Below, piece after piece: positions 63,208-64,000 of a DNA stretch of 64,000 nt. A program made the translations under genes and the position numbers. Under the pieces are notes generated by a model. That model was not told where the DNA came from and ran no database searches. It saw only the letters and a list, made by a program, of their open reading frames with translations. The DNA is from Cyanobium sp. FGCU6 (lineage in GTDB: Bacteria > Cyanobacteriota > Cyanobacteriia > PCC-6307 > Cyanobiaceae): the NCBI GenBank assembly GCA_024958655.1, contig JANWUR010000013.1:35043-99042 (forward strand). The letters are read 5' to 3'. The first letter of the stretch is position 1. Each line of letters opens with the position of its first letter.

Positions 63208-64000
63208 ATGCAGAAACTCAGGAAAGTTGCAACTGACTTCTTTTATGGCATCTTTGCCCAATGGCTCACTCCTTTTGTCGTTGCATCTATCGGTTTCGCA
63301 TATAATAGCCTGGCAAGTGTGAGTTTTAGAGTGCCATTGAGGATTGCCGTCTGGATATTAGCCCTTGCATCTGTATTGCCCCTAGCAAGATACTTAAGAC
63401 AGTGTCAATGGAGACACAAACAGATACGCTTCTTGAAGGAAGACTCAGCGACAAGATCCCTTGATCTCTTTATTGATATTATACAAAGAGAAGTTTGGCT
63501 AGCGATGAGAGTGCCAGAAAATGGGTTTCATACTGTTTTGCCCTCGTTCCAAAAGTATATTTTACTGAGAAAGCAACCTATGCAAATAATTCTGGTTGAT
63601 TGCATGCGCATCGCAGCAAGAGCCAAGAGCCTCGCTGAACATTCACAAGTATTGTCACAGGTAAGTCATTATCTAGAGTTTATGCGATTCTACAAGAAGA
63701 TGGCCGTTCCCAGAATCGTAGCTCAATGTCTTCTGTATTTCAAAACCTTTAAGGATGATCTTGATATCATACTAATTTATGGCCATAGCACGGTCGTACT
63801 TGAGGCTGTTGTTGCTGGTTATCGTGAGTCACGCTTCACGATTGTTGTCGTTGAGGACAAACAATACCATAAAGAAAGCTTAAATGAACATCAGATTGTC
63901 TGCAATAGGTTGAAGTCAGAAAAAGTCGTATACCATCTAATTGCTTATGATCAGACAGACGACCTTTTGAAAGGTACAAGATCGATTAGATGCAAGATAG
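63208..64000 (+). CDS. 2TM + eIF2B/ribose-1,5-bisphosphate-isomerase-like protein (cassette 4), 3'-partial
   Basis: 264 codons without a stop, read manually; two N-terminal TM helices; DIILIYGHSTVVLEAVVAGYRESRFTIVVVED...EHQIVCNRLKSEKVVYHLI. Confidence 0.7.
   Translation, partial: MQKLRKVATDFFYGIFAQWLTPFVVASIGFAYNSLASVSFRVPLRIAVWILALASVLPLARYLRQCQWRHKQIRFLKEDSATRSLDLFIDIIQREVWLAMRVPENGFHTVLPSFQKYILLRKQPMQIILVDCMRIAARAKSLAEHSQVLSQVSHYLEFMRFYKKMAVPRIVAQCLLYFKTFKDDLDIILIYGHSTVVLEAVVAGYRESRFTIVVVEDKQYHKESLNEHQIVCNRLKSEKVVYHLIAYDQTDDLLKGTRSIRCKI

Follow-up and report, generated by a model that had tools for sequence, protein, structure and literature searches.

The 64,000-nucleotide stretch of Cyanobium sp. 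FGCU-6 analysed here (contig JANWUR010000013.1, positions 35,043 to 99,042 of the forward strand; called the window below) breaks off inside an open reading frame that starts at position 63208 in an integron cassette. What does this truncated gene, called gene 1 below, encode, and what could its product do for the cell? A preliminary description had proposed a stand-alone membrane effector of defence, made of two transmembrane helices and a ligand-binding domain resembling eIF2B and ribose-1,5-bisphosphate (R15P) isomerase. The results showed that gene 1 is real and that a third domain, of the HAD type, and a second, coupled gene sit just past the window edge. The second gene encodes an acetyltransferase of the AAC(3) family (Pfam PF02522). 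The reading that we favour, with a probability of about 0.4, is a module for handling a small molecule at the inner face of the membrane, in which a phosphorylated sugar or aminosugar would be bound, dephosphorylated or held, and N-acetylated.

The complete gene and the fold of its product

From the ATG at 63208 on the plus strand, the frame runs for 264 codons without a stop up to base 63999/64000. By an arithmetic estimate, an open frame of 264 codons would arise by chance with a probability of about 6e-8 at the local guanine plus cytosine (GC) content of about 0.41. The GC content is 0.40-0.41 in the region of the frame, 0.46-0.54 in the other cassettes, 0.70-0.78 in the flanking chromosome and 0.72 in the genome. 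In attC site 3 the R' box is GTTAGCT (63149-63155), and the ATG follows 59 nt after its G. An AT-rich frame at this distance from attC, open to the window edge, is what the preliminary description had reported, and frame, composition and position all agreed with it; the motifs it had quoted are all present as well (RKQP at residues 121-124, IYGHSTVV at 190-197, FTIVVVED at 210-217 and EH at 227-228). It had also suggested retrieving the full frame, and this recovered protein P0018 of Cyanobium sp. FGCU-6, with 639 residues, of which the window holds residues 1-264 (41%). These residues are identical to the window translation, and the last 193 residues of P0018 were matched at 100% on an independent public contig (L092). 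Gene 1 is a real gene, with homologues at 83%, at 45% and down to about 22% identity. Its features within the window are as follows.

63208..64000, plus strand: gene 1, codons 1-264 of 639; the gene continues to about 65127 in window numbering, beyond the window
63238..63306, plus strand: first hydrophobic helix, residues 11-33 (hydropathy; AlphaFold2 helix 2-35, low confidence)
63319..63387, plus strand: second hydrophobic helix, residues 38-60 (hydropathy maximum 2.02; AlphaFold2 helix 44-77)
63448..63741, plus strand: all-helical N-terminal subdomain of the middle domain, residues 81-178 (AlphaFold2), holding the invariant R121 and P124 (RKQP, 63568-63579)
63763..63999, plus strand: start of the Rossmann-like subdomain, residues 186-264, with YGHS (63778-63789), EDKQY (63853-63867) and EH (63886-63891)

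Full-length P0018 was modelled with AlphaFold2 from a family alignment of 16 sequences, with a mean predicted local distance difference test score (pLDDT) of 82. Behind the N-terminal helices, the model comprises a helical part (81-178), an alpha/beta part (186-345), a beta-rich insert (351-410), a disordered linker (413-427) and the HAD domain (432-639). A model of the middle domain by itself reached a pLDDT of 86 and a predicted template-modelling score of 0.86. When this domain was compared with the PDB by Foldseek, 50 of the top 50 matches were eIF2B alpha, beta or delta subunits, R15P isomerases or the Pyrococcus aIF2B-like protein (E 8e-13 to 8e-11, probability 1.00, template-modelling score (TM) 0.5-0.7). 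The middle part of the full-length model also matched eIF2B subunits and the archaeal R15P isomerase.

Sequence similarity to the same family is marginal. The Pfam IF-2B model (PF01008) scored 12.5 bits with the window fragment (E 0.087, residues 118-216) and 11.7 bits with the middle region of P0018, and its gathering score is 22.4. The homologue P0002 reached 24.4 bits, above gathering, and a match at E<=1 was obtained in 5 of 15 family members. A sequence search of the PDB with the 264-residue fragment gave no significant IF-2B match. Three family profiles searched against PDB sequences reached eIF2B-delta only at E 0.18-1.2, below significance, with alignments in register (YGCS/YGHS, frvvvvdsr/ftivvvedk and ESYKF/ESYKV). 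The IF-2B relationship is thus established by the modelled fold and remains remote and marginal by sequence. Of the resemblance that the preliminary description had claimed, the fold was confirmed by the very comparison it had suggested, Foldseek of an AlphaFold model against the IF-2B family, and the sequence part stays marginal for this protein, as its 12.5 bits fall short of the 22.4 needed for gathering.

In the R15P isomerase PH0208, Cys135 and Asp204 are catalytic and Ser137 and Lys240 hold the 5-phosphate of the sugar; eIF2B-alpha has Ala or Gly at the position of the Cys (PMC5789824). Gly192, Ser194, Glu283 and Lys331 of P0018 correspond to Cys135, Ser137, Asp204 and Lys240, in a register set by motif alignment and not by structural superposition. 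The Cys position is Gly in 16 of 16 members, and the Asp position is Glu283 in P0018 and Asp in four members. The putative phosphate-binding residues Ser194 and Lys331 are invariant, the latter in an ESYK motif that aligns with ESYKF of eIF2B-delta. R121, P124, Y191, G192, S194, D217, Q219, Y220, E227, H228, R274, G281, E328 and K331 are among the residues that do not vary in the 16 members, which share 20-84% identity. Because the Cys position is an invariant Gly and the phosphate-holding Ser and Lys are kept, the middle domain is probably a binder and not an isomerase, that is, a pocket for a phospho-sugar without isomerase chemistry. This suits the ligand-binding role first suggested for it. 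A function of gene 1 as an isomerase of the MtnA/R15P type was rejected, as no member has the catalytic Cys.

P0018 shares the helical bundle, the Rossmann-like domain and the order of motifs (YG-x-S, an acidic strand, G-x-[DE], ES-[YF]-K) with the archaeal R15P isomerases TK0185 and PH0208 and with eIF2B alpha, beta and delta. Like eIF2B-alpha and eIF2B-delta, its family has Gly at the isomerase Cys position, and in this it departs from the R15P isomerases, which have the catalytic Cys. It differs from both groups in its membrane anchor, its beta-rich insert (351-410) and its HAD fusion, as well as in being a bacterial, cassette-borne protein of marginal sequence similarity to them.

The HAD domain (residues 432-639 of P0018) lies entirely outside the window. 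Pfam HAD_2/Hydrolase models matched full-length relatives at about 432-620 with E 1e-18 to 1e-32 (HAD_2 scores 69-112 bits), and P0018 has precomputed PF13419/PF00702 matches. By Foldseek, this part of the model resembles CbbY and beta-phosphoglucomutase, with a target-normalised TM of about 0.8. The best NCBIfam matches belong to the beta-phosphoglucomutase family (TIGR02009 subfamily), at 79.6 bits against a cutoff of 153. Judged from the model, it is a C1-capped HAD domain of the beta-phosphoglucomutase/CbbY type. Motif I (nucleophile D436), motif II (T539 in LVTAS) and motif IV (E596-D597) are present; D436, G439, D444 and E445 are invariant, and D597 occurs in at least 90% of members.

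The general acid/base Asp two positions after the nucleophile is replaced by Asn438 in 15 of 16 members, and Asp occurs only in P0013. According to PDB entry titles, engineered D10N variants of CbbY and beta-phosphoglucomutase are the forms that were crystallised with bisphosphate substrates bound. Because Asn438 mirrors these substrate-bound forms, it is plausible that the HAD domain is slow or holds a phospho-ligand or a phospho-enzyme state. Metagenomes are rich in stand-alone HAD proteins with the motif FDFNG[VI]IINDE (for example L009 8001-8540 and L013 8001-8597), which number at least 350 relatives, and HAD proteins of this DxN type look like a natural subfamily. Since stand-alone DxNG proteins are common, the Asn would belong to a whole subfamily instead of being a loss unique to gene 1. 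Compared with beta-phosphoglucomutase and CbbY, the domain has the same core and cap fold, the motif I Asp, motif II Thr/Ser and motif IV Glu/Asp-Asp and, in the close group of the gene 1 family, the motif III Lys. It differs in the Asn at Asp+2, in scoring under the subfamily cutoff and in being the C-terminal part of a membrane protein.

Hydropathy at the N-terminus was calculated by the Kyte-Doolittle method with a 19-residue window. The segment at residues 11-33 stays below 1.6 in P0018. Most relatives have two clear segments and one relative has only one. AlphaFold2 placed helices 2-35 and 44-77 in a hairpin, at low confidence. Positive charges flank the hairpin, some ahead of helix 1 and more behind helix 2 (six K/R in residues 60-80); by the positive-inside rule, this K/R-rich stretch would put both soluble domains in the cytoplasm. 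Gene 1 is thus predicted to have an anchor of two helices with N-in/C-in topology. Of the two transmembrane helices announced in the preliminary description, the hydrophobic hairpin as such and its clear second segment stood, and the first segment proved weak in P0018.

The acetyltransferase partner and the cassette

A PF02522 gene (Antibiotic_NAT, AAC(3) family) follows gene 1 directly on its 3' side and on the same strand in 8 of 10 informative loci, which are those of the window strain (L092), L001, L002, L003, L004, L085, L087 and L088-90. All close relatives with a contig long enough to show the neighbourhood are among them. Contig L092 carries the last 193 codons of P0018, then the acetyltransferase P0022 (exact match), then an attC site. 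P0022 bears the NCBI label AAC(3) family N-acetyltransferase, Cyanobium sp. FGCU-6, and is 80% identical to the acetyltransferase of L002. Its start overlaps the stop of gene 1 by 20 nt, and the corresponding overlap in L004, a metagenome-assembled genome of Candidatus Leptofilum proximum, is 4 nt; overlaps of this kind indicate that the two genes are translationally coupled. The pairing is kept at L088-90, where the gene 1 product (P0009) is only 24% identical to P0018. At a ninth locus, that of the distant member P0011, no PF02522 gene was found and a divergent GNAT acetyltransferase adjoins instead. The acetyltransferase P0023 (56% identical) occurs alone, without gene 1. The paired acetyltransferases form two groups that mirror the divergence of gene 1, and stand-alone ones are interleaved among them.

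The partners score 149-188 bits with PF02522. Their motif NTTMHAIEE aligns with the His154 motif of AAC(3)-IVa, which is catalytic (PMC8956665), and the catalytic His and Glu appear intact. The characterised members of this family all acetylate small molecules, and one of them, FrbF, has no activity on aminoglycosides (PMC8956665). None of the NCBIfam AAC(3) subtype cutoffs was reached (best 97-118 bits against 270), and a recognised AAC(3) resistance subtype was therefore rejected for the partner. It resembles AAC(3), FrbF, YokD and BA2930 in fold family and in the catalytic His/Glu motif, and is set apart from them by scores below all AAC(3) subtype cutoffs and by its coupling to an eIF2B-like/HAD protein.

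The integron around the pair was identified from the following features.

59068..60027, plus strand: integron integrase IntI (TIGR02249, 461 bits against a cutoff of 265; Pfam Phage_integrase and Phage_int_SAM_4)
61524..61618, plus strand: attC site 1, end of the first cassette (repeat family, core motif, imperfect bottom-strand hairpin, alignment)
62272..62364, plus strand: attC site 2, end of the HicA/HicB cassette (repeat family, core motif, hairpin, alignment)
63066..63158, plus strand: attC site 3, with R' box GTTAGCT at 63149-63155 and the crossover G|TT at 63149/63150, the start of the gene 1 cassette
63150..63207, plus strand: leader of the gene 1 cassette, with the -10-like hexamer TATCAT at 63181-63186, about 21 nt 5' of the ATG (TATAAT in L002)

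The three repeats of about 95 nt are attC sites and the integron is real. Their core motif has 3 copies in the window against 0.02 expected, and each bottom strand folds into an imperfect hairpin in which some bases bulge out. The gene 1 cassette spans about 2.96 kb with two genes and ends, on L092, in its own attC of the same family after the acetyltransferase gene. The pair is likewise flanked by attC sites on the metagenome contigs L001 and L002. The cassette setting given in the preliminary description was thus borne out, by the integrase and by attC sites upstream and downstream of the gene pair. In a three-way alignment, the leaders of the window (63150-63207), L001 (57-114) and L002 (136-193) have a mean column identity of 84%. 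Because the cassettes next to the pair differ among the window strain, L001 and L002, and the pair in L001 and L002 keeps a homologous leader and its own attC, the two-gene cassette moves as a unit. The conserved -10-like hexamer suggests a candidate promoter carried by the cassette; a consensus promoter scan of the leader did not call this element.

Classical integrons have the integrase divergent from the cassettes. Here the integrase (59068-60027) shares the strand of the cassettes and is not divergent from them. An MscS-like mechanosensitive channel gene (60420-61262, plus strand, GC about 0.6) lies between intI and attC1. A HicA toxin/HicB antitoxin pair (61735-62261, plus strand) forms its own cassette between attC1 and attC2. 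The cassette adjoining gene 1 (62396-63112, plus strand) encodes a DUF4145 protein (Pfam E 1.7e-13), for which the PADLOC model of the candidate anti-phage protein PD-T7-4 gives a further match at E 2e-7; the stop codon of this gene lies inside attC3. In four freshwater metagenome runs, the attC3 core (63048-63158) had a word depth of 62-1549 and the cassette bodies of 2-6, and many different sequences were joined to both sides of the core. As the depth of the core far exceeds that of the cassettes, this attC type is common to a large cassette pool in those communities. Genome and metagenome contigs were searched for exact 50-nt patterns without a match, and no RNA run holding the cassette was found.

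The gene 1 family is small. When 1.84 billion cluster representatives were searched exhaustively with HMMER, 17 relatives came up, nearly all of about 620-660 residues; these are 17 clusters at 50% identity, mostly singletons. A second search with P0001 (83% identical) returned P0018. A word-indexed protein search with the 264-residue fragment found no homologue. A genome-locus search with closer alignment gave one locus, L004, and in metagenomes it returned nothing but generic stand-alone HAD proteins. The phage and plasmid collections yielded no family member; the phage matches were HAD-only. One match on an Embleya plasmid, covering 59% of the query, was discarded as an ordinary DxDG HAD protein with a spurious upstream extension. 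Protein databases label the family only as 'beta-phosphoglucomutase', automatically, and literature searches returned no description of the architecture of gene 1 or of the pairing. The folds are known; the combination of a hairpin, a non-catalytic eIF2B/R15Pi-like domain and a DxN-type HAD domain, and the pairing with an acetyltransferase, are undescribed.

The genomic contexts of the family are mixed. Two PGM_PMM genes and genes for an IMPase-family protein, a NUDIX protein and a phosphomutase-type metalloenzyme surround P0009 (L088). A ROK kinase gene precedes P0008 (L086), a P-loop kinase and a GNAT gene flank P0011, and P-loop kinases are found at L087 and L091. The neighbours at L004 and L085 are unrelated. 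Upstream of P0005 (L087 967-5807) are genes for a QueC-like protein, a protein without assignment, a SMODS nucleotidyltransferase, a weakly SLATT-like protein with two transmembrane segments and a zeta-toxin/AAA_33-like kinase; by its gene content this is a defence cluster resembling the cyclic-oligonucleotide-based anti-phage signalling system (CBASS). P0005 is also near a patatin gene.

What the gene pair may do

In the module that we favour, gene 1 would capture a phosphorylated sugar, aminosugar or aminocyclitol and would remove or hold its phosphate. The acetyltransferase would then N-acetylate the amine. What the cell would gain is detoxification or resistance, or the salvage of a compound like an amino sugar. 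We prefer this reading because the constant features of the family are a fold of the phospho-sugar type, a phosphoryl-transfer domain and an amine acetyltransferase. The sugar-phosphate and kinase neighbours at L086, L087, L088 and L091 were also counted in its favour. Gene 1 would be the accessory to the acetyltransferase, since the acetyltransferase occurs alone and gene 1 was not found without one, but for the distant member P0008.

Several observations weigh on the other side. The membrane anchor meets no obvious need of a detoxifying enzyme, and P0008 has no acetyltransferase downstream. The Asn at the acid/base position may mean that the HAD domain is no working phosphatase; given how common stand-alone DxNG proteins are, the change may also be benign. 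The partner acetyltransferases are far below the AAC(3) cutoffs and by sequence as close to FrbF as to AAC(3)-IVa, so aminoglycoside resistance as such is doubtful. The HicAB and PD-T7-4-like neighbours, and the SMODS/SLATT cluster beside one homologue, fit defence too.

Defence is the first alternative. The pair could be a new two-gene anti-phage system that uses the eIF2B-like domain to detect a pentose (bis)phosphate or a nucleotide-derived signal of infection. The effector would be the HAD domain, the hairpin or both, acting by metabolite depletion or membrane damage, and the acetyltransferase would be a co-effector or a safety partner. We consider this possible but unlikely. It would suit a cassette with a candidate promoter in an array that holds HicAB and the PD-T7-4-like DUF4145 protein, the position of P0005 just downstream of the QueC/SMODS/SLATT-like cluster and near the patatin gene, the N-terminal hairpin, and a foreign composition (GC 0.41 against 0.72 in the genome). 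Moreover, eIF2B-fold proteins oligomerise (PMC5789824), which could bring several hairpins together; in a hexamer such as that of R15P isomerase, 12 membrane helices would meet. The resemblance to effectors such as the SLATT proteins of CBASS-like systems lies in a hairpin joined to a ligand-binding Rossmann-like domain and in the one gene 1 homologue that adjoins a SMODS/SLATT cluster. However, neither protein of the pair matches SLATT or any PADLOC model (PADLOC-DB 2.0 gave no significant match for either, the best being Csx19 at E 0.015 over 45 residues). A cyclase or other signal-making partner is missing, and the conserved partner is a small-molecule acetyltransferase from a family whose characterised members all act on small molecules. 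No member occurs in the phage or plasmid collections searched. Most contexts are not defence islands (L004, L085, L088): the survey of homologue neighbourhoods, which the preliminary description had suggested, found a CBASS-like cluster beside only one of about 10 loci. The first helix is weak in P0018, and one relative has a single clear segment. The earlier proposal of a defence protein built as a fusion of two transmembrane helices with a nucleotide sensor thus received no direct support from the PADLOC comparison or from the mixed contexts.

A more detailed form of this idea is rather less likely. Here the pair would be a new type of system, anti-phage or abortive. Its membrane-tethered, eIF2B-like receptor would read an infection-related pentose (bis)phosphate and switch a slow, 'latching' HAD domain together with the hairpin, and the acetyltransferase would act on an amine of the phage or the host. 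Candidate ligands would be ribose-1,5-bisphosphate, products derived from phosphoribosyl pyrophosphate or ADP-ribose, and changes that a cyanophage imposes on the ribulose-1,5-bisphosphate (RuBP) pool.

It is also quite unlikely that the pair serves regulation or addiction. Gene 1 would then be a pseudo-enzyme that tethers the acetyltransferase and, depending on how much of a sugar phosphate is present, gates or neutralises it. One of the partners would do harm in the absence of the other, and the array would thereby tend to keep the cassette. Chromosomal integrons often carry toxin-antitoxin cassettes, and HicAB is next door. The coupling is strict and runs in one direction only, with the acetyltransferase P0023 occurring alone, and the frames overlap. 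Both gene 1 domains deviate at catalytic positions, with Gly for Cys and Asn for Asp+2. However, with 639 residues gene 1 encodes a protein far larger than typical antitoxins, and the invariant nucleophile and metal ligands of the HAD domain argue for chemistry and not for mere scaffolding. Nor are AAC(3)-fold enzymes known to act as toxins.

An ordinary role in carbon or sulfur metabolism is improbable. In this case a membrane-bound pentose-phosphate enzyme, like those of methionine salvage or of RuBP and xylulose-1,5-bisphosphate housekeeping, would have been captured as a cassette. Methionine salvage does combine an IF-2B-fold enzyme (the isomerase MtnA) and HAD enzymes in one pathway. The host is an autotroph with RuBisCO, the best structural match of the HAD domain is CbbY, a xylulose-1,5-bisphosphate phosphatase, and among enzymes the middle domain matches R15P isomerase best. 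However, the catalytic Cys of MtnA and R15P isomerase is missing in 16 of 16 members, the family is very rare, with 17 clusters in 1.84 billion representatives, and patchily distributed, the cassette is mobile between integron arrays, and the constant N-acetyltransferase partner has no place in those pathways.

The original proposal of a stand-alone, metabolite-gated effector consisting only of the hairpin and an eIF2B-like sensor, both of which are real, is contradicted by 375 further residues ending in the HAD domain (432-639), by the second, coupled gene in the same cassette and by a pairing conserved down to 24% identity, and is hardly credible now.

Each surviving reading would carry its own meaning. 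If the receptor reading is true, bacteria would use the stress-sensor fold of eIF2B in immunity. Should the middle domain act as a sensor, bacteria would have their own version of the sensing of sugar phosphates that has been reported for eIF2B (PDB 7kmf, by entry title). If the favoured module is an aid to detoxification, AAC(3)-family genes in environmental integrons may have accessory partners that widen their substrate range, and this would bear on how resistance-type cassettes are read.

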